Part shown: positions 142 through 51,186 of the stretch, one piece after another
Layout of the letters: each line of letters begins with the position of its first letter
Numbering within the stretch: position 1 is the stretch's first letter
DNA from: Halobacteriales archaeon QS_1_68_20
GTDB lineage: Archaea; Halobacteriota; Halobacteria; Halobacteriales; PXRE01
Assembly: GCA_003021085.1 (NCBI GenBank)
Contig: PXRE01000026.1
Location: 132,669-196,668 of the forward strand
Direction: 5' to 3'
Length of the DNA: 64,000 nucleotides
The notes under the pieces: generated by a model
What the model saw: only the letters and a program-made list of their open reading frames with translations
Databases searched by the model: none
What the model was told of the DNA's origin: nothing
Made by a program: the position numbers and the translations under genes

Positions 142-918
142 TTACGAGTAGCTGGCGATCAGGACGTCGTGGTCCTCGCTGGTGCTGACCTCGACGTCGT
201 CACCGTACGCACCGGCCCTGATGTACTCGATCTTCCGTTCCACCCAGTCCTGATCGGTCTGCAGCGGGAACGCGAGCACCTGCTCGCCACCGTACACCCG
301 GACGTCGCCGTAGTTGTTGACCGTGAGTTCGGGGACGATCTCCCTGGACTCGGCCGTGGACTCGCCGTACTCCGGTCGCTTCGAGACGGTCTCCGCGGGC
401 AGTTCCAGGGTCGTCTCGCTGCCGACCCGGACCGTCCGGGAACGACCGCCCGCAGTCACCTGGACGTCGGGACCGGACCCGAACGAGACGTCGACCGCCG
501 GCTCCTGGTATGGTTCGTCGAGCAGCATGAAGTTCGGGCTGCGCCAGCTCGGGCTCGCATCGTGGTAGATGGTGGATATCTCCTCGCCAGCGAGGGTGGT
601 ATCGCCAGTCGCGTAGCTCCACCTGAACCCGGCCACGTCGTCGCCGTTTTCGAAGGGCTGCACGTTGCCGGTCTGGAGCCCCAGCACGCCGTTCGTTCCG
701 ACGACGTGCGTCGCACCGTCGTCGTGGTGCCCCATGGCCTTCGGATTACTCCCGTAGGTCAGGGTCACGTCGACGAAGTGGGTCTGGCCGAGGAAGTACT
801 CCGAGGAACGGCCGGCAGCCGCGAGCGTCGTACCGCTGAGGGTGTTCGCAGCCATCGCGCCCGACCCGACCACCTTGAGCACGTCACGCCGTGAGGAGTG
901 TCCGTTGTTGTCAGTCAT
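142..918 (-). CDS. Tat-signal secreted hypothetical protein
   Basis: 258-aa ORF. The N-terminus SSRRDVLKVVGSGAMAA is a twin-arginine motif followed by a hydrophobic stretch. Composition is acidic. It lies 15 nt downstream of, and co-oriented with, the Cys-rich ORF 934-1617. Confidence 0.75.
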   Translation of the reverse strand: MTDNNGHSSRRDVLKVVGSGAMAANTLSGTTLAAAGRSSEYFLGQTHFVDVTLTYGSNPKAMGHHDDGATHVVGTNGVLGLQTGNVQPFENGDDVAGFRWSYATGDTTLAGEEISTIYHDASPSWRSPNFMLLDEPYQEPAVDVSFGSGPDVQVTAGGRSRTVRVGSETTLELPAETVSKRPEYGESTAESREIVPELTVNNYGDVRVYGGEQVLAFPLQTDQDWVERKIEYIRAGAYGDDVEVSTSEDHDVLIASYS

Positions 919-8974: not shown

Positions 8975-9148
8975 CTACGTCGATGGGCGCATCTCGAAGG
9001 CTTCCCGCTCGACGACCTCGTCGGAGCCACAGTTGGAACAGGCGTCGACCTGTTCGTCGTACTCCGCCCCGCAGTTCGCGCACTCGAACCTGACTCTCGT
9101 CTCGGTCTGCGGGATCAACGCGTCCTTGGGTTTGTCTAGCAGGGCCAT
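8975..9148 (-). CDS. Small zinc-ribbon protein (57 aa, below the ORF-track cutoff)
   Basis: My manual translation gives MALLDKPKDALIPQTETRVRFECANCGAEYDEQVDACSNCGSDEVVEREAFEMRPST. It has two CxxC pairs, an ATG start and a TAG stop. Confidence 0.6.
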   Translation of the reverse strand: MALLDKPKDALIPQTETRVRFECANCGAEYDEQVDACSNCGSDEVVEREAFEMRPST

Positions 9149-9279
9149 CGGTCGTCGCTACGTGCCGGACGTGGATAAGACGTTCTCCGGTCTGGATGGC
9201 GTCGATCCGACTGCCGTCGAGTCCCGTGGGCGCGGCCGGAACGGACACTTTCATTACGGATCGGTTAGCCCCTCAACCA

Positions 9280-9856
9280 ATGGCGTCCCAGCGGCTCACG
9301 CTGTACGACATCGTCGTCGACCTCCTCCCCGGTGTGACTGCCATCCTGCTGTTCGCGCTGTTGCTTCCCGCTTCTTGGGTCAGAGGACTCCTCGGGAAGT
9401 TTCCGCTCGGATCGGCACTGGTCGTCCTGGCGCTGGGGTACGTCGTGGGGCGGTTGATCCACGCGATGGCGGCGCGGCCGGCGACGAAGAATCGAGTGCT
9501 CGGCGGGTTCGACCGGGGAATCTCGGAACGGATCGCGGAGGACCCAACGAAAAATCGACAGAGCGGTCGATCCGGGGGACCGGAACCTCTGGTTCACTAC
9601 CTTCGCAGCAGCCACCGTATACCTCTTGGCCTTGTCAGGTTACGTCGTCCTGAACGCGCTGGTGGAGATTGACGTTCCCTACGACCCGTTCTGGTTCCTG
9701 GTCTTCGATAGTCCGTTGACAGCCGGGATCGCAACCGCACTACTGATAGTGTTCCTCCTGTTCGTCTCGGCGATCGCCGGCGCGCGCCGTCTCGAATTCA
9801 ACCACCGCAAGACCCGGACGTCCGTCGACGACCTCCACCAGACGCTGTCCGATTAG
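9280..9856 (+). pseudogene. Membrane protein split by a +1 frameshift
   Basis: Frame 1 (MASQRLTLYDIVVDLLPGVTAILLF...) and frame 2 (...DRNLWFTTFAAATVYLLALSGYVVLNALVEID...) are both open across 9458-9672. The sensible join is at the A5 run near 9550-9555 (AEDPTK / KIDRAVDPGDRNLW). Confidence 0.5.
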
Positions 9857-9857
9857 T

Positions 9858-10835
9858 TCACTCGTGGCCGGACACCGGAACGGGTTCGTACGGTTCCTCC
9901 AGCCACTCGACGTCGGAGTCGTCGAGGTCCAGTTCCACCGCCTCCACGGCTTCCTCTAGGTGCTCGACGCTGGTCGTCCCCACGATCGGCGCGTCGACGG
10001 CGTCCTGTTCCAGGAGCCAGGCCAGGGCGATCTGGGCCATCGAGGCGTCGTACTCCTCTGCCAGCTCCTCCACGCGCTCGTTGATCTCTTCGCCGCCGCC
10101 CTCGGCGTAGGGATGCTCGTGCGCGTAGGTATCCGTCTCGCCACGGGTTGTCGACCGGAACTCCTCGTGGGGCCGCGCGAGGTAGCCCCGGGCCAGCGGA
10201 CTCCACGGCATCACGCCGATGCCTCCGCGCTCGCACAGCGGGAGCATCTCGCGTTCCTCCTCGCGGTAGACGAGGTTGTAGTGGTTCTGCATCGTCTGGA
10301 ACCGCTCCAGGCCCAGGCGGTCGCTGGTGTGGAGTGCCTCCGCGAACTGGTAGGCCCACATCGAGGACCCGCCGACGTATCTCGCCCGTCCCCGTCGCAC
10401 GGCGTCGTCCAGCGCCCGCAGGGTCTCCTCGATTGGCGTCTCGCCGTCCCAGCGGTGGATCTGGTAGAGGTCGACCGTCTCCATCCCCAGGCGGTCCAGG
10501 GAGTTCGCCAGTTCCTGCTCGATGGCCTTCCGCGAGAGGCCACCGGAGTTGGGGTTGTCCTCGTCCATCTGGAAGTAGCACTTCGTGGCGACGACCTGGC
10601 GGTCGCGGTCGTACTCCGCCAGTACGTCCCCGAGGACGCGCTCGCTCTCGCCGTTGGAGTACATGTTGGCGGTGTCGAAGAAGTCGATCCCCAGGTCGAT
10701 GGCGCGCTCGACCAGTTCCCGGCCCTCCTCCTCGTCCAGCACCCACTCGCGCCAGTCGCTGGTGCCGAAGCTCATACAGCCGAGACAGATGCGGCTGACG
10801 GTCGTGCCCGTACTGCCGAGGGTGGTGTACTCCAT
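9858..10835 (-). CDS. Aldo/keto reductase
   Basis: MEYTTLGSTGTTVSRICLGCMSFG ... GIDFFDTANMYSNGESERVLG is a typical AKR N-terminus. The ATG at 10835 is preferred over the TTG at 10862. Confidence 0.9.
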   Translation of the reverse strand: MEYTTLGSTGTTVSRICLGCMSFGTSDWREWVLDEEEGRELVERAIDLGIDFFDTANMYSNGESERVLGDVLAEYDRDRQVVATKCYFQMDEDNPNSGGLSRKAIEQELANSLDRLGMETVDLYQIHRWDGETPIEETLRALDDAVRRGRARYVGGSSMWAYQFAEALHTSDRLGLERFQTMQNHYNLVYREEEREMLPLCERGGIGVMPWSPLARGYLARPHEEFRSTTRGETDTYAHEHPYAEGGGEEINERVEELAEEYDASMAQIALAWLLEQDAVDAPIVGTTSVEHLEEAVEAVELDLDDSDVEWLEEPYEPVPVSGHE

Positions 10836-26000: not shown

Positions 26001-26025
26001 GGGCGCTCGGTAATTCAGAGTGCGA

Positions 26026-26099
26026 GGGCCGGTAGCTCAGTCAGGGAGAGCGACGGACTCTTAATCCGTCGGTCGGGGGTTCAAATCCCTCCCGGCCCG
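26026..26099 (+). tRNA. tRNA-Lys (anticodon CUU)
   Basis: Manual cloverleaf: acceptor gggccgg/ccggccc, D-arm gctcagtcagggagagc, anticodon stem acgga/tccgt with loop ctCTTaa, T-arm gggggttcaaatccctc, discriminator g. 74 nt, no intron, no encoded CCA. Confidence 0.88.
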
Positions 26100-26206
26100 T
26101 GCAACGAGACGGTGAGCGGCGCGAACCGTCGAGTGAACCGGCCCGGCGGATTTGAACCCGGGGAGACGCAGCCCGCGCAACGAAGTGAGCAGGAACGTCT
26201 CCACTC

Positions 26207-26228
26207 GGTTCAAATCCCTCCCGGCCCG
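26207..26228 (+). repeat. Partial duplicate of tRNA-Lys 3' end (copy 2, 22/22 identical)
   Basis: ggttcaaatccctcccggcccg repeats tRNA positions 26078-26099 exactly. No matching 5' acceptor or T-stem strand lies upstream, so it is not a tRNA. Confidence 0.85.
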
Positions 26229-26370
26229 CTTCTCAATCATCTTCCTTGCGAGCGACCGCCATAGGCGTGTCGCGAGCACTCACACGTGAAGCGGCCTCGG
26301 GGGATTCGACCCCGGCCAGTCGCAGCCCGGAACGGCGCGAAGCGCCGCACGCCCGGACCGTCCGGTACTC

Positions 26371-26392
26371 GGTTCAAATCCTTCCCGGCCCG
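26371..26392 (+). repeat. Partial duplicate of tRNA-Lys 3' end (copy 3, 21/22 identical)
   Basis: ggttcaaatccttcccggcccg. Like copy 2 it is preceded by actc and followed by c, and the ~70-90 nt upstream of copies 2 and 3 are homologous to each other. Confidence 0.85.
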
Positions 26393-26586
26393 CACGTTGT
26401 TATTACACTATCTGCCTACTCACATCCGGTTTCTTCAGGTCACTTATATGCTCTCCGCGACTATATAAGGGAGTTCCACGAACGTCTCGCCCGGTCAGTA
26501 GATACCGCCTATAGGCGCTGCCACGATAGCCTCACCAGCGGCTCACGACCGTCACCTCCAGTAACAGTTCAGCGACTACCCGGGAA

Positions 26587-27495
26587 TCACAGCAGCCCCG
26601 TCTTCTGCAGCTTCATGAGGTCCTCGGTGTCGAGCGTCTTCCCCTCTTTGAACTTCTCGTAGATCTCCTCGGCCTCTTCGCGGGCCTTCTCCTTCTCCTT
26701 CTCGCGCTCGGCCTTGCGCTCTTCCTCTTCCTGGCGGTCGAGTTCGCGCAGGCGCTTCTGGACGCGGACGAAGTCCTCGTGGTGCCGGTCCGCGGCCTCC
26801 TGGGCCTCGACGAACTTCTCGTGCATCTCGTCGGCCTCGTCGCGGATGTCGTCGGCCTCGCGGTAGGCCTCGATCATCTGGTTGTGGTGCTCCTGGGCCT
26901 GGTCCGCGAGTTCGGTCACCTTCTGGTGGTGCTTGGAGGCCTCAGAGCGGACCTGCTCGGCCTTCTCCTTGAGGTCGTCCAGTTCCTCGTTCTGTTCGAG
27001 CTTCTCTTTTTTCTGCTGGAGCTGCTCGCGCTTGTCCTCGATCTTCTCGATGAGTTCGCGCTCGTCCTCCGTCGAGAGGACCTCCGTCTGCTGTTTGAAC
27101 TCCAGGTCCTCGATCTCGCTTTTCAGCTCGTCGATGGACTTGCCCTCGTCGAGCTTGAGGTCGCGCTTGAGGTCCTCGACCTCGTCGAACAGTTCGTTCG
27201 CCTTCGCGTTCAGTTCGTTGCGGACCTCCTTGTGCTCCTGGACGCGCTCGTTGAGCACGTCGCGCTTCTCGCGGTGTTCCTGGGCCTCGTCGACCTTCTC
27301 GCGCGTCTTGGCATTCAGGTCGTCGCGCTCGCTCGCCCGCGCGGACGCCTTCTGGTTGAGTTCGTTTCGTCGGTCCCGGAGCTGTCCCGCGAGCTTGATG
27401 AGCTCGCCTTTGGACTTCTCCTGGAGGTCGTCGTCGGTTACCGCTACGTTCTTCGATTCGTCGATCGATTCGAATTCGGCCTCTGCCTGTGCCAT
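26587..27495 (-). CDS. Conserved archaeal coiled-coil protein
   Basis: 302 aa, extremely Glu/Lys/Asp/Arg-rich heptad-like sequence (…ELNAKANELFDEVEDLKRDLK…). The ATG at 27495 (MAQAEAEF) is used. Confidence 0.85.
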   Translation of the reverse strand: MAQAEAEFESIDESKNVAVTDDDLQEKSKGELIKLAGQLRDRRNELNQKASARASERDDLNAKTREKVDEAQEHREKRDVLNERVQEHKEVRNELNAKANELFDEVEDLKRDLKLDEGKSIDELKSEIEDLEFKQQTEVLSTEDERELIEKIEDKREQLQQKKEKLEQNEELDDLKEKAEQVRSEASKHHQKVTELADQAQEHHNQMIEAYREADDIRDEADEMHEKFVEAQEAADRHHEDFVRVQKRLRELDRQEEEERKAEREKEKEKAREEAEEIYEKFKEGKTLDTEDLMKLQKTGLL

Positions 27496-27881
27496 GATTT
27501 TACCTCTGTGCCATCCGCCTTCCGGCAACGCTCGCAGCCGGGGCTGCTCGGTGGTTGCAGCCGTCCGGTCGAGGAGAACTCCCTGTCATCTGTCGAGCGA
27601 TACCGCCAACGCCGGAGGCGTTATGGTATACCGATTTACTATCGGTGTTGATTTAAAATTTGCGGTGAGCGACACCTTGCAAGCAGTTGGCAAACGCCGT
27701 GGAACGACCGTGTAAACGGTTCGCAAGGGTCCCCGCCGTGGTATAAAGGGATACGGTCGCTACTGATCGTACTGTCACTCCCCGTCCGCCAGAACCGATA
27801 GACTCCAGCCTCGTCGACGGTAGTCGGTCGACGCCGAAAACATCGGTCGCCTCGAAACAGTCGACGACCGACGGCGGCCGT

Positions 27882-29741
27882 TCAGAGTCGATACCGGTTC
27901 TCGACGGTCCGGTCGGGTAGCGACAGCGTCAGCGTGACGACGTCGGCGTCGCCGGGAATCGTCACCGTCGGACCGGCAGACCGCTCGAAGGCGTCGACTG
28001 CAACCTGGTCTTCGCCCGCTTGCTCGCCCGCCTGCCAGGTGAGCGTCCCCGAGACCGAATCGCCGGTGTCGTTGACGACGGTGGTCTCGACTTCACCCGG
28101 TGACGGCGGGGCCGAGAGCGTCGCCTGGACGGGTTCGTAGGCGTCGGCCACGGCGTCGAAGGCGGTCTTCTCGGTCCCGTCGCTGGCGAGCACGCCCATG
28201 CCACCGCCGACGTCGGCGTCCCGGAGTGCGTACGTGGCCATCGCGTGACTCCCGCGGCGGCGCAGGGACTCCGCGACGGTCTTGACCACGTTCGCCTGGT
28301 AGGCCTGGGACGCCTCGACACCGTCGGTGACGTGTGCGTCGTGCTTCCGGCGGTCCAGGCCGGCGACGTCACCGTCCTCGTCGGTCGCTAGCGCGCCGGC
28401 CCCGAACTCGCTGACGACCTCCCCGAGCGACGGGTTGCGGTCGAGCAACCAGTCCACGTCTGCCGCCTTCCCGTAGTCCCACCCGGGGTAGAGGTGTGCC
28501 GCGTCGGGGTCGGTTCCGAGCGGCCCGGCGACCGGGAACACGACGGCGTCGTCGGGGAACGCCCCGGCGACGGACTCGTCGGGCGTGGCGTTGTAGTCCG
28601 AGCGCCAGACCCGCCAGCGGATGCGATACCGCGCGGTCCGGCCCGACCCGACCGGGTCTTCGAAAGCCGTCCGCGGGCCGTCGTGGACGCCGTACATGCC
28701 GACGCTCGGGTGCTGCCCGTAGCGCCGCTGGAGGATCGCGGCGAGGGTCTTCGCCCGGCCGACGTCGTAGCCGCCCGGGCCGGTCAGCGGGAGGTCCTGG
28801 AAGACCAGCAGGCCGGCCTCGTCGCAGGCGCTGTGGAACTCGTGAGATGGAACGTGCGCGTGTGCCCGCACGAAGTTCGCGTTGGCCTCGACGGCCCGGT
28901 CCACGTCGTCTTCCGGGTCTCCGCCCGGCAGGCGGTTGAACCCGCGCAACCGGATGCGCCGGCCGTTGACGAGGAAGCCGTCCTCGTCGCGTTCGACGGT
29001 GCGCAGCCCGGTCGAACGGGTCACCTCCTGGCCGCGGAACCGGACGCTGACCTCGTAGCGGTGCTGGGGGCCGTGGCCCCGCGGGTACCAGTAGCGCGGT
29101 TCGTCCAGCTCGATCGTGTGCTCGACCGTGGTGGTACCGCCCGCCGCTGCCGTGACGGGCGCCTGTTCCATCAGGCCGCTCCCCCGGAACCCGCCCGGGC
29201 GAAGCGAGAAGGTGACCGAGTCATCGATGGCCTCGGCGGCGTCGACCGTCGCCCGGATGTCGAAGCCGACGGGGTCGGTCAGGCGCGGCCGCACGTCCAC
29301 GTCGGTCACGGCGGCCGGTCCGATCCCCTCGACTTCGGCCCCCCAGTGGATGCCCGGCACGCTCGTCTCGGCGGGAACGGCGTCCGTCTCGAAGACGCCG
29401 CCGAACCGGTCGTCCGGGGACCGACACTCCACGACCAGTTCGTTGTCGGCTTCGGGTTCGAAGCGGAATCGGGCGGGCTCGAAGTAGGTGTCGTGGGTCC
29501 CCAGGAGGTCCCCGTTGAGCCAGATCCGGGCGCGAGCGTAGAGACCCTTCAGCGTCAGCAGCGCCCGCGGCTGGTCGCCGTCCCGGGGATCGGGGAATCG
29601 CGTCCGATAGGCGACGGTGTCGGCGCCGGCGAACCGGCCTGCCGGTCCCGGTACCTCGACGGCCGTCCACTCGTCGGCGGCGGGCGGGGACGCCCCCGTC
29701 GCCCCCTCGACCTCCGCCGCCGACCACTCGTCAAGCGTCAT
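27882..29741 (-). CDS. Glycoside hydrolase family 2-like protein
   Basis: 619 aa starting at the ATG at 29741. It has sugar-binding and Ig-like regions and TIM-barrel-like segments (LVNGRRIRLRGFNR, NFVRAHAHVPSHEFHSACDEAGLLVFQDLPL). The upstream 115 codons of the ORF are not protein-like. Confidence 0.8.
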   Translation of the reverse strand: MTLDEWSAAEVEGATGASPPAADEWTAVEVPGPAGRFAGADTVAYRTRFPDPRDGDQPRALLTLKGLYARARIWLNGDLLGTHDTYFEPARFRFEPEADNELVVECRSPDDRFGGVFETDAVPAETSVPGIHWGAEVEGIGPAAVTDVDVRPRLTDPVGFDIRATVDAAEAIDDSVTFSLRPGGFRGSGLMEQAPVTAAAGGTTTVEHTIELDEPRYWYPRGHGPQHRYEVSVRFRGQEVTRSTGLRTVERDEDGFLVNGRRIRLRGFNRLPGGDPEDDVDRAVEANANFVRAHAHVPSHEFHSACDEAGLLVFQDLPLTGPGGYDVGRAKTLAAILQRRYGQHPSVGMYGVHDGPRTAFEDPVGSGRTARYRIRWRVWRSDYNATPDESVAGAFPDDAVVFPVAGPLGTDPDAAHLYPGWDYGKAADVDWLLDRNPSLGEVVSEFGAGALATDEDGDVAGLDRRKHDAHVTDGVEASQAYQANVVKTVAESLRRRGSHAMATYALRDADVGGGMGVLASDGTEKTAFDAVADAYEPVQATLSAPPSPGEVETTVVNDTGDSVSGTLTWQAGEQAGEDQVAVDAFERSAGPTVTIPGDADVVTLTLSLPDRTVENRYRL

Positions 29742-31759: not shown

Positions 31760-32641
31760 ATGAGCGACGACGACGCGGCGGGCTACCCCGACGAGGACGA
31801 CCCGACGGCCGCCGCGAACGCGGACGCCGAACCGGACGTGAACATCAGCGGCGGGAATCCGGATGGCTGGACGGCCGCCGACTTCGCGGCCGGCGAACCG
31901 GCCACCCGCGCGGAGGCGGTCGTCGACCGCCTGGGCGAACTGTACTGGCAGAAGACCTACGGCGGCCAGGACGCCTTCGAATGCCTCGTTCGGACGGTCC
32001 TGAGCCAGAACACCAGCGACAAGGCCAGCCAGCCGGCCCACGACGCGCTGATGGACCGCTACGGCCCTGAGGCCCCCGAGGCGGCGACGGAGGACCTCGC
32101 GGAGACCCTCGCCGGGGCCGACCGCGCGGAACTGGCCGACCTGATCCGGCCGGCGGGCCTGTACAACCAGAAGTCCGAGACCATCCAGCGACTCGCCGAG
32201 CGCGTCCTCGCGGAGTACGGCGGCGCGGACGCCTTCGACGAGTTCGTCGAGCGCGAGGACCCAGCAACCGTCCGGGGGGTCCTCCTGGAGATGAACGGCG
32301 TCGGTCCGAAGACCGCCGATTGCGTGCTACTGTTCTCGGGCGGCCGCGGCGGGGTCTTCCCGGTGGACACGCACGTCCACCGCATCTATCGACGGCTTGG
32401 GATCGCGCCCCTTGACGCCGACCACGAGGCGGTTCGCGCGGTGCTGGAGCGAGACGTCCCGGCCGAGAAGTGCGGATTTGGGCATACTGCGACGATTCAA
32501 TTCGGGCGGGAGTATTGCACTGCCCGAAAGCCTGCCTGTCTTGAAGGGCCAGAAGCATGCCCCCTCTACGACCTTTGCGACCGAATTGGGGTATCTCCTG
32601 AGACGGGGGACGTCGTTGACCCTGCCGAAACCGTTGATTGA
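31760..32641 (+). CDS. nth: Endonuclease III-like DNA glycosylase (HhH-GPD, Fe-S cluster)
   Basis: LVRTVLSQNTSDKAS, the HhH element MNGVGPKTADCVLLF, VFPVDTHVHRI and a C-terminal Cys cluster CTARKPACLEGPEACPLYDLC. It has an acidic N-terminal extension. Confidence 0.88.
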   Translation: MSDDDAAGYPDEDDPTAAANADAEPDVNISGGNPDGWTAADFAAGEPATRAEAVVDRLGELYWQKTYGGQDAFECLVRTVLSQNTSDKASQPAHDALMDRYGPEAPEAATEDLAETLAGADRAELADLIRPAGLYNQKSETIQRLAERVLAEYGGADAFDEFVEREDPATVRGVLLEMNGVGPKTADCVLLFSGGRGGVFPVDTHVHRIYRRLGIAPLDADHEAVRAVLERDVPAEKCGFGHTATIQFGREYCTARKPACLEGPEACPLYDLCDRIGVSPETGDVVDPAETVD

Positions 32642-32799
32642 GAGCTTCTATTCATATCAAGACGAACCAGATCTGCCTGCCATTCCCCTCCCTCCTCGTG
32701 GGCGTCCACCACTGCGATTCCCTCCTTTTCTGCTCCATTCACGAGGCGGAACACTCGAACACTGTACCTCTGTTCATAGTTTCCAGGGAAATACTCCAT
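32566..32799 (-). CDS. Hypothetical small ORF in low-G+C island, possibly a gene fragment
   Basis: 77-aa ORF (MEYFPGNYEQRYSVRVFRLVNGAEKEGIAVVDAHEEGGEWQ...). Its frame stays open ~40 codons upstream without a start codon. Its 3' end overlaps the nth gene. Confidence 0.3.
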   Translation of the reverse strand: MEYFPGNYEQRYSVRVFRLVNGAEKEGIAVVDAHEEGGEWQADLVRLDMNRSSQSTVSAGSTTSPVSGDTPIRSQRS

Positions 32800-32828
32800 C
32801 TTGTCGGTCGGATGTATACCTTTGAGAG

Positions 32829-33002
32829 TCAGATCTGCCCCTCTCGGCCGAACACACTCCTCTCTCGTATCCTCAAACCCTCTGACGGCCCCTCGCTCCC
32901 GCTTCGTAGTCCCTCGGGAATGTCATCTTCACTCATGTTCATGGAATGCACAAAGAGGGAGTATAGTTGCTTCCCATTCGTCGAGCGCATACCTCCCTCC
33001 AT
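32829..33002 (-). CDS. Hypothetical 57-aa ORF in low-G+C island, doubtful
   Basis: My manual translation is MEGGMRSTNGKQLYSLFVHSMNMSEDDIPEGLRSGSEGPSEGLRIRERSVFGREGQI. A neighbouring frame also carries protein-like pieces interrupted by stops, which suggests decay. Confidence 0.2.
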   Translation of the reverse strand: MEGGMRSTNGKQLYSLFVHSMNMSEDDIPEGLRSGSEGPSEGLRIRERSVFGREGQI

Positions 33003-33025
33003 CAAAATTAAGTTACGGAGGAGGA

Positions 33026-33232
33026 TTACGGAGGGTCCACAGGGGGTGAGTATTGACCAAAGCCATGAGAGACGTCCTCCTCCTCGATGATGTTCTCCAT
33101 CTTGGTAACGATAGCATCAATTCGGTCATTCTCCCGTATATTGGTCTGCTCCCCTTCATCGTCAGCCGCTTCGTAGGTGTCAGCCAGTTCGTCGTAGGCG
33201 GCTTCCGCTATCGGGTTCTTCTCCGACGTCAT
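33026..33232 (-). CDS. Small acidic hypothetical protein
   Basis: 68 aa with an ATG start: MTSEKNPIAEAAYDELADTYEAADDEGEQTNIRENDRIDAIVTKMENIIEEEDV. Lower G+C than the backbone. Confidence 0.4.
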   Translation of the reverse strand: MTSEKNPIAEAAYDELADTYEAADDEGEQTNIRENDRIDAIVTKMENIIEEEDVSHGFGQYSPPVDPP

Positions 33233-33370
33233 GCGGTGGCGTTCTCCGGTCGTCGATAAGAGGTGTGGGCCTTCACCGACACTGCCGACCGTGGAGTTCT
33301 CCGCGGCCGTCGACCACGCGTATGTGGGCGGAAAACTAGCCGTCAGTGCCAGCCGCCGGACGACTGGGAG

Positions 33371-33571
33371 TTACCTCGCGTGCACGTCGGCGGCGTTTCC
33401 GGGTCGGTCGTCGTTCGCGGGGTTGGCGCTCCCGTCGAGGTTCGGGTTCATCAGGTAGGCGTTCTCCGACCCGGTCTGGGGGTCGTCGTCGTAGTGCGGA
33501 CCGCTGGGGCCGGCGACCTGGTTGCACGCCGGGTTGTGCGCCGTCGCACTGCCGACGAACGCCAGCGCCAC
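33371..33571 (-). CDS. Small putative secreted peptide, start uncertain
   Basis: 66-aa ORF. The open frame upstream encodes ...TRRSRLVVYAVVASLVALAFVGSATA, which looks like a signal peptide, but no ATG/GTG/TTG precedes the GTG at 33571. Confidence 0.3.
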   Translation of the reverse strand: MALAFVGSATAHNPACNQVAGPSGPHYDDDPQTGSENAYLMNPNLDGSANPANDDRPGNAADVHAR

Positions 33572-33762
33572 CAGCGACGCGACGACCGCGTAGACGACGA
33601 GTCGGGACCGTCGGGTGGCGAGCGTCCGTCCGGTTGACCTCGATCGCGTTGCGAGCGGTCCTAACGCCGGATTTCGCTTTGTTCGTCGCAGGTTATCTCG
33701 TCAAAGCAGTTTCTAACGAGGGACGCGAACAAACGCCCGACTGCGCCGGCCTGATGCTCGGA

Positions 33763-33978
33763 TCACAGGGTCAACAGCGCGACGGCGAGCACGGCGAACC
33801 CGACGCCGGCGGCGTCCCGGAGCGACAGCGTCTCCCCGAAGACGGCGACGCCGGTCAGGTAGGAGACGATCATGGCGACCTCAGGGGGGATGGTCCTGGT
33901 CGCGACGTTGGCGAGTGCGGCCCAGAGGCCCCGGGCGAGCATGACGACCAGCCCCGGTTGCACGGCTGTCGGTGACAT
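33763..33978 (-). CDS. Two-helix membrane protein resembling the C-terminal end of a DMT/EamA or SMR transporter, possible fragment
   Basis: 71 aa from the ATG at 33978: ...IPPEVAMIVSYLTGVAVFGETLSLRDAAGVGFAVLAVALLTL, typical of the last helices of EamA/SMR proteins. Confidence 0.45.
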   Translation of the reverse strand: MSPTAVQPGLVVMLARGLWAALANVATRTIPPEVAMIVSYLTGVAVFGETLSLRDAAGVGFAVLAVALLTL

Positions 33979-34015
33979 ACCCGTGACGAAGCGGAGGCCG
34001 GTCCTGAACGTTTCG

Positions 34016-34549
34016 TCAGTGCGCGGGCGATTCGGCGGGCGCTTCCATGCCCGTGATTCGGAGGACGAGACTGTTGGAGGTGTCGTCGACGCCGTCGACC
34101 TCACCGCGGACGACCAGTTTCGAGAGGGGCGTGGGCCCGACCGCGACTTCGTCGCCCTCCTCGAAGTCCGAAACCGATCCCTGGACGTACACCTCGGCGC
34201 GGCAGAGTTCCGGGTGGTGGACGCTAGAGAGGTTGATCTGTTCGACGTTCAGGCCGGGCAGTTGCTCGCCGTCCCGGCTGATCCGGACCTCGGCGGGTTC
34301 GTCCATCCGCTGGACGTCCAGCGCTTCGTAGGCTCCGGCGGTCGGCTTGTACCCGCCCTTGGGGCCGGGGACGCCTTCGACGAGCTGGAGGGCCTTCAGA
34401 CTCTGCATCTGGTTCCGGATGGTCCCGGGGTTGCGGTCGACCTCCTCCGCGATGTCCTCGCCTTTGATGGGTTCGTCGGTCTGGCGGTGGAGGTTTACCA
34501 GGGCGGTGAGGATAGTTTGCTGGCTGGACGTCAGTTCAATGGATGACAT
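34016..34549 (-). CDS. Winged-helix transcriptional regulator with C-terminal beta-rich domain
   Basis: The N-terminus SSQQTILTALVNLHRQTDEPIKGEDIAEEVDRNPGTIRNQMQSLKALQLVEGVPGPKGGYKPT is an HTH/wHTH pattern conserved in haloarchaeal regulators. Confidence 0.8.
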   Translation of the reverse strand: MSSIELTSSQQTILTALVNLHRQTDEPIKGEDIAEEVDRNPGTIRNQMQSLKALQLVEGVPGPKGGYKPTAGAYEALDVQRMDEPAEVRISRDGEQLPGLNVEQINLSSVHHPELCRAEVYVQGSVSDFEEGDEVAVGPTPLSKLVVRGEVDGVDDTSNSLVLRITGMEAPAESPAH

Positions 34550-34668
34550 ATTGGTCGAACGTTCGGTGCATATTTCCTTAAATGCGGCGGATGCCCACGC
34601 CAGGGTTTGGTTTCCCAGGAGGGGAGACCGGCACCGATTTCAGTCGGCCGCCCCTCGATTCGAACAGC

Positions 34669-35592
34669 ATGCAGGACAAGCGTGTGCTCGTTACCGGGGG
34701 TGCGGGGTTCGTCGGGTCGAACCTCGCCAACTACCTGGCCGCCGCCAACGACGTCGTCGCGGTCGACGACCTGTATCTCGGGACGCCGGAGAACCTCTCC
34801 GGGGACGTGGAGTTCGTCGAGGCGTCCGTACTGGACGACGACCTCCCGACCGACGTCGACGTCGTGTTCCACATCGCGGCGTTGTCCTCGTACATGATGC
34901 ACGAGGACGACCCCACCCGCGGGGCGCGGGTCAACGTCGAGGGGTTCGTCAACACCGTCGACCAGGCCCGCCAGGACGGGTGTGAGACCGTCGTCTACGC
35001 CTCTACTTCGTCCATCTACGGCGACCGGACCGAACCCTCGCCGGAGTCGATGGCCGCGGAGGCCAACACCGGCTACGAGGCGTCGAAACTCGCCCGCGAA
35101 CGCTACGCCGAGTACTTCCACAACCACTACGACCTGTCGATGGCCGGGATGCGTTTCTTCTCGGTCTACCAGGGGATGGAGGCGGGCGCCGAAGCGCACA
35201 AGGGCGAGTACGCGAACCTCATCGCGCAGTTCGCCGACGACGTCGCCAACGGGCGCCGTCCCGAGATCTGGGGCGACGGCTCCCACAGGCGGGACTTCAC
35301 CCACGTCGACGACGTGGTCCGCGGACTCGAACTCGCGGCAGACCACGAACTGAACGGCATCTACAACCTCGGGACCGGCGAACAGTACACCATCAACCAC
35401 CTCGTCGAGCGACTTAACGACATCCTCGGGACCGACGTCGAACCGGTGTACGAGGGCAACCCCATCCCGGAGGACGTGTTCGTCCACGCGACGATGGCTG
35501 ATCCCTCGAAGATGAAGGAGGCCACCGGCTGGGAGCCCCAAATCGACTTCGAGGAAGGTCTCCGGCGGGTCTGCGAACCGTACCTCGACTGA
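34669..35592 (+). CDS. NAD-dependent epimerase/dehydratase (second copy in window)
   Basis: VLVTGGAGFVGSNLANYL, YxxxK (TGYEASK). The ATG at 34669 is preferred over the upstream ORF start. Confidence 0.9.
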   Translation: MQDKRVLVTGGAGFVGSNLANYLAAANDVVAVDDLYLGTPENLSGDVEFVEASVLDDDLPTDVDVVFHIAALSSYMMHEDDPTRGARVNVEGFVNTVDQARQDGCETVVYASTSSIYGDRTEPSPESMAAEANTGYEASKLARERYAEYFHNHYDLSMAGMRFFSVYQGMEAGAEAHKGEYANLIAQFADDVANGRRPEIWGDGSHRRDFTHVDDVVRGLELAADHELNGIYNLGTGEQYTINHLVERLNDILGTDVEPVYEGNPIPEDVFVHATMADPSKMKEATGWEPQIDFEEGLRRVCEPYLD

Positions 35593-39312: not shown

Positions 39313-39610
39313 CGTCGAGACGTTGTCGGTGGATGGTACTTGAAGGTGTGTTTCGGTACATCGCGAGTCCACCAGCCAGCGCTGGACCCGTTACGCCTCG
39401 AACCAGCCGGTCGGCCGAAGTCCCAACAGGTCCACCCTGAACGTCTTCGGACCCTCGACCGGTGGCGCGTAGCGGAGTTGCCCGTCGTCGACGTGAAGTC
39501 GACCGATCGTCCGAAAACGTTCCCGCCGACACACCGGCCGGAGAGCTGGATCAGCCAGCGAAACGATACCGGCCGACAGTCACGTCAGGTCGGCGGAGTC
39601 CTGCCCCTCG

Positions 39611-40288
39611 TTACCAGCAATCGTACTCGTCCTGACAGACGTCCCAGCAGCTATCCGGCGGATGGCAGTCCTCGCCCCAGGGGTCACAGTAATCGATCCA
39701 GTTATCCCAGTAACAATAACTGTCACAGCAGTAGATCTTTCGGTGGTACGGAACACAGTCGTCGTCGTAATCGCTGTCGTACTTGCAGTCGGGCGCGTAA
39801 CACTCCGTACAGACCGATTCGACGCTCACTTCGCCGGACGTCCGGTCCGGATCGACGATCCGCTTTCCGGCTTCGTCCTCGACGATTGCATAGGCGTCCT
39901 CCGACTGGGGATTCACGTACATCCGTACGTCCCGTGCCGGTGACTCGACCCGCATGGTTATCAGCGGCTCCCAGCCCTGTTCGGTTGGAATCACGTCGAC
40001 GACGACGTCACCAGCAGTCGATTCTTGCGCACCGGACGTGACGTGATCGACGATCTCCCCGTCGTCCAGGTACCGATTCCGCCGCAAGTAACTGACCAGA
40101 TCCTGCCCGTGTTCGGTAACGGCCTCACTCAGATCCGCGGTCGAGGCGTACTTACTCCTGGCCTCCTGAATGCTGGGTGAGAACTCGGATTTCTTCGTGC
40201 TCGCTCCGGAGGTGGCCCCGGCACCGATGCCGAAGAACGTTGCTGTCGCAGAGCCCTTCTTCAGCAGCTCACGTCTATTCAGACGCAT
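39611..40288 (-). CDS. Tat-signal precursor with cysteine-rich acidic C-terminal peptide (halocin-like architecture)
   Basis: 225 aa. MRLNRRELLKKGSATATFFGIGAG is a twin-arginine signal. The last ~66 aa contain 12 Cys (CTECYAPDCKYDSDYDDDCVPYHRKIYCCDSYCYWDNWIDYCDPWGEDCHPPDSCWDVCQDEYDCW). Low-G+C codon usage and an AT-rich upstream tract. Confidence 0.8.
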   Translation of the reverse strand: MRLNRRELLKKGSATATFFGIGAGATSGASTKKSEFSPSIQEARSKYASTADLSEAVTEHGQDLVSYLRRNRYLDDGEIVDHVTSGAQESTAGDVVVDVIPTEQGWEPLITMRVESPARDVRMYVNPQSEDAYAIVEDEAGKRIVDPDRTSGEVSVESVCTECYAPDCKYDSDYDDDCVPYHRKIYCCDSYCYWDNWIDYCDPWGEDCHPPDSCWDVCQDEYDCW

Positions 40289-40345
40289 ATTCTGAGTTAA
40301 TTCTACTTTAGTTAAATAATATTTGATATACAGTAGTTAATCAGA
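40289..40345 (-). promoter_or_regulatory. AT-rich upstream tract, putative promoter of 39611-40288
   Basis: attctgagttaattctactttagttaaataatatttgatatacagtagttaatcag lies directly 5' of the ATG. It is the most AT-rich stretch in this part of the window. Confidence 0.45.
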
Positions 40346-40560
40346 ATACTCCTCGAGAATTACGATCCGCGTTGAAGGCGTGTCCGCGTTCGCATACGCC
40401 TGAACCGTCTTCCGCCGAGCTCGTCCGCCGACCGTTACCCTCCAGCCCGGTCGTGTAGGGTCCCGGCGACCGGAATCGACCGCGCCATCCGCCGATAGTT
40501 CGCTGGGGACGCCCCGGCCGTCGGCCACGGTAACGGCCGCTTTCCCAACCCTATTCCGCG

Positions 40561-41883
40561 GTGGGTTCGAATAACGAGCATGGCGCTGTCGGGGGAGCGG
40601 GCGTGACGTCGACCCGACTCGGCGTCGATCCGCAGGTGCTGACGCTGGCGGTCGCCCGCATGACCGAGTCGGTCGGCAACTCGTTTCTGATCGTCGTCCT
40701 GCCGCTGTTCATCGGGAGCGACGCGGTCACGGGAGCGACGTTCGGCCTCACCGAGGTCGCGCTCACCGGGGTCGTCCTCTCGCTGTTCGGGTTCGTCAAC
40801 AGCCCCCTGCAACCGTTCACCGGCCGCCTCTCGGATCGGACCGGCCGTCGGAAGGTGTTCGTGCTGGCCGGCCTGGTGCTCATCGGGACCGCGAGTTTCT
40901 CGTACTCGCTGGCCTCCGAATACTGGCACCTCGTCGGACTGCGCGTGCTCCAGGGGGTCGCGGGCGCGTTGATCATCCCGACGACCGTGGCGCTGGTCAA
41001 CGACCTGGCGACGTCGACCAACCGCGGCGGGAACATGGGAACCTACAACACGTTCCGCCTGGTCGGGTTCGGCGTCGGCCCCATCGCGGCCGGTGCCGTC
41101 GTCGCCGCGGGCCCGTACGTCCTCGACCTGGGCCTCGTCCGTGCCCGGGTGAGCGGGTTCGACGCCGCCTTCTACTTCGCCACGACGACGGCGACCCTCA
41201 GTTTCTTCCTCGTCCTGTTCCTGATCCGCGACCCCGAGGTCGACCCGCCAGGGGACGACGACAGCGCACTGGAGGGCATCGCGGTCCGGGACCGGTCCGG
41301 CAGGGGAGTCCTCGACCCCGTATTCGCGCTCGGCGCGGTCACGTTCTTCATGGCCATCGGCGTCGCCCTGTTCGCCACACTCGGGGACGTCGTCAACGAG
41401 CGTCTCGACCAGGGGCCGACGCTGTTCGGCCTGCAGTTCGCCGCGTTCGTCCTGGCCCAGATCCTGTTGCAGGCGCCCATCGGGCGCGCGACGGACTTCT
41501 ACGGCCGCAAGCGGTTCATCGTGGCCGGGACGGTACTGCTGGTCCCGGCCACCTTCGTCCAGGGGATCATCTACGACCCCTGGCTGATGTTCGCCGCGAG
41601 GTTCGTGCAGGGGGTCGCGGGCGCGATGGTGTTCGCCCCTGCCCTCGCGCTGGCGGGCGACCTGGCACCGGAAGGACGCTCGGGGTCGACGCTGTCCGTG
41701 CTGACGATGGCGTTCGGGTTCGGCGTCGCGTTCGGCCCGCTGGCGTCCGGATTCCTCGTCTCCTTCGGGTTCGTCGTCCCGTTCGCGTTCGGTGCGGTCC
41801 TCGCGGCCGTCGGTACCGTCCTCGTCTGGACGCAGGTCGAGGAGACGGTCACGCCGGCCAGGGCGCCGGCGTCCGCGGATTGA
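40561..41883 (+). CDS. MFS transporter (12 TM)
   Basis: 440 aa with two six-helix halves. Motif A-like GRLSDRTGRRKV and a second-half GRATDFYGRKR. GTG start. Confidence 0.88.
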   Translation: MGSNNEHGAVGGAGVTSTRLGVDPQVLTLAVARMTESVGNSFLIVVLPLFIGSDAVTGATFGLTEVALTGVVLSLFGFVNSPLQPFTGRLSDRTGRRKVFVLAGLVLIGTASFSYSLASEYWHLVGLRVLQGVAGALIIPTTVALVNDLATSTNRGGNMGTYNTFRLVGFGVGPIAAGAVVAAGPYVLDLGLVRARVSGFDAAFYFATTTATLSFFLVLFLIRDPEVDPPGDDDSALEGIAVRDRSGRGVLDPVFALGAVTFFMAIGVALFATLGDVVNERLDQGPTLFGLQFAAFVLAQILLQAPIGRATDFYGRKRFIVAGTVLLVPATFVQGIIYDPWLMFAARFVQGVAGAMVFAPALALAGDLAPEGRSGSTLSVLTMAFGFGVAFGPLASGFLVSFGFVVPFAFGAVLAAVGTVLVWTQVEETVTPARAPASAD

Positions 41884-41950: not shown

Positions 41951-42375
41951 TTACCCCGTTCGCCGTTCGGTCGTCGCCGACGGTGCCGGCAGCGTGATCG
42001 TGAACGTGGTTGCCTCACCGGGTTCGGACTCGACCCCGACGTCGCCGCCGTGGCGCTCGACGATGCGCTTGCACAGCGCCAGGCCGATGCCGGTCCCCTC
42101 GTGTTCGTCCCTGGTGTGGAGTCGCTGGAACAACTCGAAGATCCGGTCCACGTCGTCGGGGTCGATGCCGACTCCCTCGTCGCTGACGGCGACGGCCACC
42201 TCCCCATCGCCCGTCCGCTGGGCGGAGACGGTCACCCACGGCGTCGTCGGCAGTCGTGTCGTCGGTCGTTACGAGTCGTCGTCCGTCCGCTGGGCGGAGA
42301 CGGTCACCCACGGGGGGTCGTCCCCGCTGTAGGTCAGTGCGTTGCCCAGCAGGTTCTGGAACACCTGGCGCAACT
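41951..42375 (-). pseudogene. Histidine kinase remnant (HATPase_c only) disrupted by a 72-bp duplication
   Basis: N-box [28 protein letters not shown] is followed by an in-frame TAA inside duplicated DNA. The sequence then resumes [41 protein letters not shown]...[18 protein letters not shown] (G1/G2 boxes). No HisKA or sensor part lies upstream. Confidence 0.75.
42211..42313. repeat. 31-bp perfect direct repeat (period 72 bp) inside the kinase remnant
   Basis: ccgtccgctgggcggagacggtcacccacgg occurs at 42211-42241 and again at 42283-42313. Confidence 0.9.
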
Positions 42376-49166: not shown

Positions 49167-50105
49167 ATGAAGCTCCGACGCCTCGCCGCCGCGACGGTCG
49201 GAGTCGCCGGTGCCGCCGCCCTCGGGAACCGCGCCCTGCGAGCGAAGGCCGACGAACTGGACCCCGCCCTCCCCGGCCAGACCGGTACCTTCCGCTGGCG
49301 GGGGTTCGACGTCTCCTACGCGGAGGGCGGCGACCCCGAGGATCAGGACCTCCTGTTGCTCCACGGCGTCCACGCCACGGCGACCAACAAGGAGTTCGAC
49401 CGCGTGTTCGACCGCCTCGCGGAGACCTACCACGTCGTCGCCCCGGACCTGCCGGGGTTCGGCCTGTCGGACCGGCCGCCGCTACTGTACTCCGCGTCGC
49501 TGTACCGGTCGTTCGTCACGGACTTCGCCCGCGACGTCACCGACGACGCCATCTGCATGGCCTCGTCGCTGTCGGGGGCTTACGCGGCGGCCGCCCAGGC
49601 GGACGCGGCCCCGTTCTCCCGACTCGTCCTCGTCGCGCCTGTCGGCGACACCGGCCCGAAGCGGGCGTGGCTCCGGACGCTGTTCCGGACGCCGGTCGTC
49701 GGGACGGCGCTGTTCAACGGCATGGCGAGCAAGCCCGCCATCTGGTACTTCAGCGACCGCGAGTCCGTCGTCGACACCGCGACGATCACCGCCGAGGACG
49801 TCGACTACTACTGGCGGACGGCCCACCAGCAGGGCGTGCGGTTTGCACCCGCGTCGTTCGTCAGCGGCTATCTCGACGTGGAACGGGACCTGGGCGACCT
49901 CCTTGCGGACGTGGACGTGCCGGTCACCCTCGTCTGGGGCCGGGAGTCGCCGTTCCCGCCGCTGTCGGCCGGGCGGGAACTCGCCAGGTACGCCGACGTG
50001 CGCCTCGTGGTGATCGACGAGGCGAAACTGCTGCCGCACCACGAACACCCCGACGTGTTCATCGACGCGCTGGCGGACGAACTGCCCGCGGTCGTCGGGG
50101 AGTGA
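49167..50105 (+). CDS. Alpha/beta hydrolase fold protein
   Basis: LLLLHGVHATATNKEF oxyanion region, nucleophile-elbow-like ASSLSGAY and a C-terminal HHEHP. Confidence 0.85.
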   Translation: MKLRRLAAATVGVAGAAALGNRALRAKADELDPALPGQTGTFRWRGFDVSYAEGGDPEDQDLLLLHGVHATATNKEFDRVFDRLAETYHVVAPDLPGFGLSDRPPLLYSASLYRSFVTDFARDVTDDAICMASSLSGAYAAAAQADAAPFSRLVLVAPVGDTGPKRAWLRTLFRTPVVGTALFNGMASKPAIWYFSDRESVVDTATITAEDVDYYWRTAHQQGVRFAPASFVSGYLDVERDLGDLLADVDVPVTLVWGRESPFPPLSAGRELARYADVRLVVIDEAKLLPHHEHPDVFIDALADELPAVVGE

Positions 50106-50224
50106 TAGAGATACGAGCACATACCCCCGTCTTCCCGTGAGTGACGAGTGTTCCGACGCACTGTCGGAACCGAGGAACGAACAGACGGGGGTTGAGCGGA
50201 CAGCATAGTGTGACACTCCACCGT

Positions 50225-50900
50225 TCTATTGCACTGCCGGCAAGACCTACGTCACCGCCAAGAGACGGCTGCAGAAGCGCGGCAGTGAACGGATCGCGGA
50301 GTCCTACGGTGACGCACTGTGAGACCGAATTGACGACGTGTTCCACCGTGTAACCCGCGAGGTCGTGGACTACGCCGAGTCCGTCGAGAACCCGGTGTTG
50401 GTGCTGGAAGACGTGACGTACATCCGCGAGACCATGGACTACGACGAGTACATGAACCGGCGGTTGCACGGCTGGGGCTTTGCCAGGCTCCACGCACAGA
50501 TTCGCTACAAAGCCGCCGAGAAGGGGATTCCCGTCGAGACGGTGAATCCCCGCAACACGTCGAAAGGCGTGCCACGCCTGCGGTGAACACGGGTACCGAC
50601 CACGACAGGCGACGTTCAGATGCTCGAACGACGGCTGTTGGGTCGGTGAGTATCAAGCCGAGGTAAATGGGGCGATACACATTGCAGACCGCTACCGTAG
50701 TGGAGAGAGTCACCGCCAAAGCGCGCGGGCTTCCCGGCAGAAGGCCGGTGACGATGTCGAGAAACATCGAAGGTTTTTCGACCATTGGAACTCTTCGATT
50801 TCCAAGAACTCGGCTACGGATGGGGCCTCTTTGACCGGGCCACAAGACAGCCAAGCCGATGCTGAAACCCAGCAGACGACGCTTGGAACGTATGCGTCTT
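50225..50900 (+). pseudogene. tnpB: tnpB (RNA-guided endonuclease of IS200/IS605) C-terminal remnant
   Basis: ...KRRLQKRGSERIAESYGDAL*(TGA at 50320)DRIDDVFHRVTREVVDYAESVENPVLVLEDVTYIRE...NRRLHGWGFARLHAQIRYKAAEKGIPVETVNPRNTSK. A frameshift then leads to CHACGEHGYRPRQATFRCSNDGCWVGEYQAEVNGAIHIADRY (Zn finger and RuvC-III-like). The N-terminal half is absent. Confidence 0.75.
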
Positions 50901-50985
50901 GAAACCAACAGGCCGCAACGCTGGGCCTGAAATCCCGTGGCGGGATTCCTCCGCGTTCACGCGGAGGAGGAGGTCAATAGTAGGG
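50700..50985 (+). ncRNA. Possible omega-RNA (reRNA) scaffold region of the decayed tnpB element
   Basis: In IS200/IS605 elements the guide RNA is encoded over the tnpB 3' end and the right end. This stretch keeps two perfect hairpins while the ORF itself is broken. Assigned by position only. Confidence 0.3.
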
Positions 50986-51186
50986 GAGTTCGTCTTTGGT
51001 CCTCGGACGGGGTCACTCGGTCAGGTCGGCCAGGGGGTTGACTCGGACGCGCTAGCAACAACCGGGCACTAGGGGAAGCCTCACGCCTCCCCAACCGTGC
51101 GGCCGGCACCGGCGGCCGACCCCCGACCATCGCACCAATCCGAGGACTCCTGCTGCTCACTACGAGTCAGAAGTCGAAAACCCGCC

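Follow-up and report, generated by a model that had tools for sequence, protein, structure and literature searches.

The stretch of DNA analysed here, 64,000 nucleotides of contig PXRE01000026.1 that we refer to as the window, appears to belong to an uncultured Halobacteriales archaeon from halite whose nearest named genera are Halorussus and Haladaptatus. At 39611-40288, on the minus strand, it carries a gene for a protein of 225 amino acids (aa) that begins with a twin-arginine signal and ends in a domain containing 12 cysteines. We regard the chances as about evenly balanced that this gene is a horizontally acquired single-gene cassette, and that its product is a disulfide-rich effector of the halocin type, secreted by the twin-arginine translocation (Tat) pathway and analogous to halocin. 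The way in which the gene and its relatives seem to have evolved, with a hypervariable C-terminal domain on a cysteine scaffold, clusters of single sequences, atypical codons and an indel at the locus, fits a secreted effector of conflict or recognition.

The cysteine-rich protein and its family

An earlier note on the window, made from the letters alone, had described a reading frame with three parts: an RR signal, an ordinary acidic domain of ~125 aa and a C-terminal segment of ~66 aa with 12 Cys. We found this layout as described, and the features of the gene and its surroundings are as follows.

39611..40288, minus strand: precursor or secreted-protein gene, called as an open reading frame (ORF) of 225 aa from its ATG, with the stop codon at 39611-39613; its 21 homologues are alike in architecture
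40199..40288, minus strand: twin-arginine type signal peptide, about residues 1-30, with NRRELLKK and an uncharged h-region; the cleavage site is presumptive
39818..40198, minus strand: Cys-free acidic N-domain, about residues 31-157, modelled by AlphaFold2 as four helices and then a five-stranded sheet
39614..39817, minus strand: C-terminal 12-Cys mini-domain, acidic and aromatic-rich, residues 158-225, proposed as the effector module from its Cys content, the family comparison and the model
40289..40350, minus strand: AT-rich promoter tract with a TATA-like TTATTTAA at 40312-40319; the upstream 80 nt are 27.5% G+C
40288-40304 and 40332-40348 (40288..40348), no strand: imperfect inverted repeat of 17 nt, 76% complementary, from a repeat search
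39313..40607, no strand: stretch without a counterpart in the closest related genome, from tblastn and blastn against contig CAYTAG010000091.1 of a metagenome-assembled genome (MAG)

All 12 cysteines lie within residues 160-224, with none elsewhere in the protein, and the C-terminal domain also holds 18 Asp and Glu and 14 aromatic residues.

We searched 1.84 billion cluster representatives exhaustively with phmmer (E<=1e-3) and recovered 22 proteins, including the query. Twenty of the 21 relatives are 208-273 aa long, can be aligned nearly end to end and have the identical three-part layout, the exception being a shorter protein, P0004, that we return to below. There is also a strain variant that is 99.6% identical to the 225-aa protein and keeps every Cys; the three differences between the variants are A25T in the signal, K171R, and one extra Asp in the C-domain. 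Because 21 distant homologues share the length and layout of the protein and the variant retains all of its cysteines, we conclude that the ORF on the minus strand is real and is more than a chance reading frame.

The relatives are all named 'hypothetical protein', with no family assignment and no Pfam match beyond a weak TAT_signal, and neither the protein nor its two halves found a family in Pfam, NCBIfam, PHROGs or PADLOC. The earlier expectation of a new protein family was thus borne out, in that no known family was matched and all 21 relatives are unannotated. A word-indexed protein search returned only the protein itself when started from the single sequence, five proteins when started from the family alignment, and none when started from the C-domain alignment. 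Close relatives were sought in genome, metagenome, viral and plasmid contig collections and none were found there; no viral contig, PHROG or defence-system (PADLOC) model matched either. Our literature search found no description of the family, the work of Makarova et al. (2019) on archaeal conflict systems being outside that search. The 90% clusters hold one or two member sequences each, almost all of them on 1-6 kb contigs from hypersaline metagenomes.

What the members share most strictly is the arrangement of their cysteines. The C-domain contains 8, 10, 12, 14, 16 or 18 Cys, an even number in every one of the 22 members, and in none of them is there more than one Cys outside it. By our binomial arithmetic, even parity in 22 of 22 would arise by chance with a probability of ~2e-7, which argues for full disulfide pairing rather than metal ligation and would give six disulfides in the 12-Cys domain studied here. 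The members share a core scaffold, C-x(5-8)-C ... CC-x3-C ... C ... C, whose cysteines do not vary at positions 3, 11, 31, 35 and 51 of the domain alignment and hardly vary at positions 30 and 44. The query, which is the first sequence of the family alignment, is covered by the family profile over its full length, carries the core scaffold and has an even Cys number (12). Outside the Cys columns the mean pairwise identity of the C-domain is 10.6%, which is essentially random, compared with 22.6% for the N-domain.

The two domains also appear to be separable. In P0004 (97 aa) a near-identical signal (MRSNRREILKKSAATATILGIGAGA...) is joined directly to a 48%-identical Cys domain, and this protein or its 120-aa gene-call variant is present in four independent assemblies; both P0004 and P0026, forms without an N-domain, are found repeatedly, in four assemblies. 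Since P0004 consists of the signal and the Cys domain only, the family comparison indicates that the N-domain is dispensable and that the C-domain is modular and independent, and the suggestion in the earlier note that the N-terminal part is the immunity part of the precursor does not stand as an obligatory role. At the P0004 loci, ~110 bp downstream, there is a gene for a 104-aa protein with a Tat-lipoprotein-like N-terminus, KRRAYLRGSGGALGFGLLAGC (L003 1173-1487; L019 8052-8366), which could serve the form without an N-domain as a partner or as an immunity protein.

We modelled the protein using AlphaFold2 with the family alignment. The predicted local distance difference test score (pLDDT) was 85-93 over residues 41-150 of the N-domain, and the predicted template modelling score (pTM) of the full-length model was 0.70. 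Modelled alone, the C-domain (pLDDT 83, pTM 0.67) is predicted to form three long strands and a C-terminal helix. Foldseek returned nothing at E<=1e-3 for the full model in PDB and BFVD, and no neighbour at the same threshold for the C-domain model in PDB, where the top matches were cystatins and were non-significant (template modelling score ~0.4, E>2). A sequence-profile search of PDB gave just noise at the level of the Tat signal.

The protein begins with MRLNRRELLKK, which is followed by 20 uncharged residues (GSATATFFGIGAGATSGAST), and the RR pair is kept in 20 of the 22 family members, while the remaining two look N-terminally truncated. Weak Pfam TAT_signal matches are found in six of the 22, and one relative, P0020, scores above the cut-off of the NCBIfam TAT_signal model TIGR01409. 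The motif that the earlier note had picked out as a twin-arginine signal, NRRELLK plus a hydrophobic run, is therefore present and conserved, though TIGR01409 is silent for the 225-aa protein, and it is from the motif, the conservation of RR and the weak Pfam matches that we infer export by Tat. Given that the signal contains no lipobox Cys and that the protein, which ends in ...DEYDCW, has no recognisable C-terminal anchor, it would be soluble and secreted.

The very AT-rich tract reported upstream of the ORF was likewise confirmed, with 27.5% G+C over 80 nt against ~69% for the genome. The TATA-like TTATTTAA is located at -31..-24 relative to the ATG, which is the usual distance between TATA element and start in haloarchaea, and this placement would imply a leaderless or near-leaderless mRNA. 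The inverted repeat brackets the TATA-like element and is a possible regulator site.

If the protein is a halocin-type effector, we envisage that the gene's own AT-rich TATA promoter gives rise to a near-leaderless mRNA and that the product is exported via Tat by its RR signal, as the motif and its conservation in the family suggest. The C-terminal module of ~66 aa, presumably locked by six disulfides into an autonomous mini-domain with the predicted fold of three strands plus a helix, would be the functional and rapidly diversifying part, most likely an extracellular agent directed at other microbes or at some variable target on a surface. The conserved N-domain would be a carrier or pro-domain, involved in folding, in Tat proofreading or in keeping the module latent, rather than an indispensable immunity protein.

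Genomic context of the gene

The gene differs in composition from the DNA around it. It has 59.0% G+C compared with ~69% in the flanks, and its G+C content at third codon positions (GC3) is 0.735 compared with 0.87-0.92 in five neighbouring genes. The low-G+C patch that the earlier note had pointed out is real, but its description as about half G+C was overstated, a figure near that (52.7%) being reached only in a 300-nt window over the promoter. The relatives likewise tend to lower G+C than their own flanks.

On one side of the gene lies a gene for a major facilitator superfamily (MFS) transporter (40561-41883, plus strand; Pfam MFS_1, E 2.5e-57), which is complete and divergent from the Cys-rich ORF across a shared region of 272 bp, as had been described. 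On the downstream side is a DUF7097 gene, whose best match is in an uncultured Halobacteriales MAG (79% identity), followed by Halorussus and Haladaptatus (~60-69%). In the closest MAG the MFS gene (85% identical by tblastn) stands next to DUF7097 without a Cys-rich gene. The non-homologous gap between the MFS and DUF7097 genes is 1295 bp in the window and 215 bp in CAYTAG010000091.1, leaving an indel of ~1.08 kb that corresponds to the gene and its promoter. Because of this indel and the deviant GC3, the gene can be read either as an insertion of ~1.1 kb or as a loss in the relative. A repeat search found no flanking direct repeats, target-site duplication or transposon ends around the insertion. 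The sequencing depth of the gene equals that of its flanks in two halite metagenome runs, one of which carries the variant with one extra Asp codon, and no presence/absence polymorphism of the gene was seen in these runs.

The neighbours in the window are the MFS and DUF7097 genes, a flavin adenine dinucleotide (FAD) oxidoreductase gene and a GT87 glycosyltransferase gene. We compared them with nine other contexts, those of eight other family members and of a frameshifted copy in Haladaptatus litoreus. All of these differ, and among the genes found in them are a DDE transposase accompanied by a TumE/HVO_A0114 pair, ATP-binding cassette (ABC) peptide-transport genes and glycosyltransferases. 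The member that adjoins the DDE transposase and the TumE/HVO_A0114 pair is P0017 (L007-L012), which also lies beside an 84-aa SecY-like fragment and is found on 11 contigs from several hypersaline samples; it is the only basic member of the family, its C-domain having an isoelectric point of 8.2. The copy in the cultured isolate Haladaptatus litoreus CGMCC 1.7737 (L036 8004-8746, minus strand) is split by a frameshift late in the N-domain (...ELKVVLFP, then VVPELGESSATLRPGG...), after which a 10-Cys domain runs on in another frame, and it lies 1.6 kb from a DUF7097 gene. It is either a pseudogene or the product of a sequencing error.

Comparison with halocin C8 and the DUF8054 link

The best-described system of comparable layout that we considered is halocin C8. 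In the published model, the precursor ProC8 is exported by Tat and then cleaved into HalI and a 76-aa peptide (bioRxiv 10.64898/2026.07.27.741052). Like ProC8 (HalI plus HalC8), the new family is haloarchaeal and combines a Tat signal, a Cys-free N part of 120-200 aa and a C-terminal segment of 60-76 aa that holds every Cys; the Cys number is even in both, 10 in HalC8-like proteins and 12 here; both reside in DNA that is variable or accessory; and some members of each lie beside a DUF8054 gene. In HalC8-like proteins, which likewise possess a Tat signal, the 10 cysteines are all found in the last 90 aa, with none elsewhere. The parallel in layout that the earlier note had drawn is therefore a sound one, both having a Tat signal, an N part free of Cys and all cysteines, even in number, at the C-terminus. 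The two differ in that HalC8 is hydrophobic and Gly/Ala-rich, whereas the C-domain of the new family is strongly acidic and aromatic-rich and has no hydrophobic Gly/Ala stretches. They also differ in that the N-domain can be absent in the new family, as in P0004, and in that the halR, halU and ABC transporter genes described around halC8 have no counterparts beside the gene studied here.

As controls for sequence similarity we used annotated 'halocin C8-like domain-containing proteins' from Haloferax volcanii pHV4, Halobacterium salinarum pHSAL1 and Haloferax larsenii plasmids. The three control proteins match Pfam PF22862 (Hac8_like_N) at 1e-44 to 3e-51, and the Haloferax volcanii protein, the one scanned against NCBIfam, matches TIGR04449 at 4.9e-12. 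None of the 22 members of the new family matches PF22862 in Pfam at E<=10, and neither the 225-aa protein nor its relatives match TIGR04449 in NCBIfam at E<=10. Comparing full-length profiles of the new family and the HalC8-like proteins with hhalign gave a probability of 80% (E 1.4e-5), but this collapsed after the Tat signal was trimmed, to 0.3% for N-domain against N-domain and 0.03% for C-domain against C-domain, and we rejected the apparent similarity as a signal-peptide artefact. By these comparisons, membership in the HalC8 family fails on two defining features, the N-domain (PF22862) and the C-domain (TIGR04449), in keeping with the earlier statement that the protein has no sequence similarity to HalC8. 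With respect to halocins H4 and S8, the phmmer search (E<=1e-3) gave only proteins of this family's layout, a comparison that is indirect and assumes that H4 and S8 are present among the 1.84 billion representatives.

Conotoxin- and defensin-style mini-proteins are Cys scaffolds with hypervariable loops. The new family resembles such effectors in keeping its Cys framework while the residues between are near random, and in having a pro-region that is more conserved. It differs in being archaeal, Tat-exported and acidic rather than cationic, and its predicted fold has no PDB neighbour.

One further haloarchaeal system can be likened to the new family by description only. HFX_0892 (HapP) of Haloferax mediterranei is a secreted precursor that becomes antagonistic only after extracellular proteolysis, with an alpha-helical N-terminal fragment as its active part (PMC12893001), which shows that a maturation enzyme does not have to be encoded with a halocin-like precursor. 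The word 'cysteine' is absent from the text of that paper (PMC12893001).

A link between the new family and HalC8-type loci is suggested by a neighbouring gene. DUF8054 membrane-protein genes, recognised by Pfam matches, are located divergently upstream of P0012 and of P0020, and in a cross-locus BLAST of neighbouring ORFs no other recurrent neighbour was found. Three DUF8054-type genes are listed here.

L013 4329-5021, strand not given: DUF8054-type gene, from Pfam and motif
L021 1624-2490, strand not given: DUF8054-type gene, from Pfam and motif
L017 1-87, strand not given: DUF8054-type gene, from Pfam and motif

The DUF8054 protein beside P0012 and P0020 has an N-terminal RFRQPEYTGxNRCxPCT, hydrophobic segments, the motif YLRGYLxPxTPxLTKRY and a C-terminal zinc ribbon; DUF8054-type proteins in general have an EYTGxNRCxxCT motif, transmembrane segments and a C-terminal zinc ribbon. 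A homologue, HVO_RS03240, is encoded immediately downstream of the Haloferax volcanii HalC8-like gene (34% identity, E 4e-25). DUF8054-type genes occur in 60 plasmid records. Of the 14 plasmid records that list both a DUF8054 and a HalC8-like gene, 11 have a DUF8054 gene or fragment <=1.2 kb from the HalC8-like gene, and these records represent two lineages, Haloferax and Halobacterium.

We also sampled ten DUF8054 plasmid loci away from HalC8-like genes. At one of these, on Haloferax larsenii pHl5678-1, the DUF8054 gene is divergent from KU306_RS16960 (L061 2480-3361, minus strand), which encodes a 293-aa Tat protein with a Tat signal, 190 Cys-free residues and 10 Cys in its last 60 aa, annotated only as a twin-arginine signal domain protein. 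TIGR04449 and PF22862 do not recognise this protein, and by hhalign it is homologous neither to HalC8 nor to the new family. It offers a third unannotated example of the layout, differing from the new family in its peptide, which is hydrophobic and Gly/Ala-rich like that of HalC8, and it probably represents one more class, the third, among halocin-like precursors. Five independent adjacencies of DUF8054 to three unrelated precursors, each with a Tat signal and an even number of C-terminal cysteines, are unlikely to be accidental, and it is because of these adjacencies that we suggest a functional analogy between the family and HalC8-type systems. The sources examined contain no description of DUF8054 as a component of halocin loci that we could find.

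Competing explanations and wider meaning

Several observations weigh against a halocin-type effector. No immunity candidate is visible in the 64-kb window, and no halR-type regulator, halU or ABC transporter gene lies beside the Cys-rich gene. A search of sequencing runs found no RNA run with the sequence, and the NCBIfam scan with TIGR01409 gave no match for the protein's own signal. Tat export of a six-disulfide domain would need oxidation before or after transport, although HalC8 is a precedent. The window contains no DUF8054 gene, and nine of the ten DUF8054 loci sampled away from HalC8-like genes have no Cys-rich precursor nearby; DUF8054 is not specific to such loci, and the association is only suggestive. 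Finally, because the full-length AlphaFold2 model is one compact object (pTM 0.70), the Cys domain may stay attached to the N-domain instead of being released.

That last possibility is at the core of an alternative that we consider unlikely but take seriously, in which the protein is a secreted two-domain protein that is neither cleaved nor antagonistic, and the Cys domain is a stable binding module working with the N-domain in adhesion to mineral or cell surfaces, in protease inhibition, or in a signal or pheromone-like function. Besides the compact model, it would account for a linker, P-x3-EDG-x, that is modestly conserved with no protease gene nearby, for the apparent lack of an immunity gene and, more loosely, for the non-significant fold matches of the C-domain to cystatins. 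However, P0004 shows the Cys module without an N-domain, and extreme divergence, a variable Cys number, a patchy distribution of singletons and horizontal insertion are less often seen in housekeeping binders than in molecules of conflict or recognition; adjacency to DUF8054 is, moreover, a feature shared with HalC8-like loci. That same adjacency could be taken as a sign of common descent, with the protein belonging to the halocin C8 superfamily as a genuine, though extremely diverged, member and the N-domain a remote HalI homologue that gives immunity. The order of parts is alike in the two, both N-domains run from helices to strands, and the full-length hhalign score (80%, E 1.4e-5) is high. 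We nevertheless judge descent from a common ancestor to be improbable, since that score disappears once the Tat signal is trimmed (0.3% and 0.03%), no member matches PF22862 at E<=10 while all of the controls do so at E<=1e-44, TIGR04449 matches its control (4.9e-12) and is silent for the 225-aa protein, the chemistry of the peptides is opposite (acidic and aromatic versus hydrophobic and Gly/Ala-rich), and P0004 lacks the supposed immunity part.

Cysteines at this density could also bind metal, and Tat substrates are often cofactor proteins, so a Tat-exported metal- or cofactor-binding protein whose Cys tail ligates an Fe-S cluster or a metal, in the manner of metallothionein or ferredoxin, has to be weighed, all the more as many Asp, Glu and His lie near the cysteines. 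We hold this to be very improbable, given that parity is even in 22 of 22 members, as for disulfides and not for metal sites, that Cys number (8-18) and spacing vary with no CxxCxxCxxxC-type motif conserved, and that no metal-binding family of Pfam or NCBIfam was matched. Still less credible is the proposal of the earlier note that the Cys-rich protein is functionally paired with the MFS transporter, which would serve export or self-protection. The two genes are indeed divergent across 272 bp, and both the strain variant and a second assembly show them arranged in this way. Yet the closest MAG keeps the MFS gene (85%, tblastn) directly beside DUF7097 without the Cys-rich gene, and because the MFS-DUF7097 pair exists without it, the transporter is independent of it. 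The GC3 of the MFS gene is typical of the host (0.92, versus 0.735 for the Cys-rich gene), a Tat substrate needs no MFS transporter for export, and the survey of co-occurrence that had been proposed as a check found no MFS neighbour in any of the nine other contexts, that is, beside the eight other members or the frameshifted Haladaptatus litoreus copy. The MFS gene would then be an older, unrelated neighbour, and we regard the pairing as largely refuted.

Haloarchaea commonly antagonise one another, mostly by means that have yet to be traced to genes, and we know of no more than a few halocins (H4, S8/R1 and C8) whose genes have been linked to sequences. Our results add a further sequence family with ProC8-like architecture and correct the model of this locus to a single-gene insertion rather than an MFS-linked pair. 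They also suggest a rule for recognition, in which an RR signal is followed by an N part without Cys and then by an even number of cysteines, all within the last 50-85 residues; with this rule, new antimicrobials or recognition molecules of archaea could be sought and tested directly. In addition, they single out DUF8054 as an accessory gene that HalC8-type loci may share. A more speculative view, which we would not at present expect to hold, is that there is a broad and unrecognised class of Tat-exported 'C-terminal cysteine-knot' effectors, in which unrelated disulfide-rich peptides serve as interchangeable warheads on Cys-free carriers, often beside DUF8054, and to which the HalC8 type, the Haloferax larsenii type and the present acidic type would all belong. 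If this were true, DUF8054 could be a shared immunity, maturation or sensing component, and the present family would amount to a halocin class of its own, with a fold not seen before.

The window contains a second Cys-containing ORF, at 934-1617, that the earlier note had compared with the candidate on account of a short motif, W-x-[ND]-[WY]-C-[ED]. The motif does occur in both proteins, but kinship between them was not supported (BLASTP E = 1.5, with no match to the family profiles), and the resemblance appears to be at chance level. This ORF (minus strand, 227 aa) is set in a stretch of low G+C (58.5%, with a GC3 of 0.80) and has an AT-rich upstream tract but no signal peptide. It directly precedes 142-918 (minus strand), whose 258-aa product carries an evident RR signal (SRRDVLKVVGSGAMAA). 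Neither ORF matches anything in Pfam, NCBIfam, PHROGs or PADLOC, and the two may form another small accessory cassette.

Between the MFS and FAD oxidoreductase genes, a 94-aa ORF at 41951-42235 (minus strand) comprises only a HATPase_c fragment, a histidine kinase remnant, and the intergenic region beside it contains an indel of ~120 bp between the two strain variants. Elsewhere in the window, a tRNA-Lys(CTT) gene at 26026-26099 borders a 2-kb stretch (26001-28000) with 61-63% G+C compared with ~70% for the genome, which may be an integration site. Further low-G+C patches are found at 9001-10000, 32001-35000 and 50001-51000.

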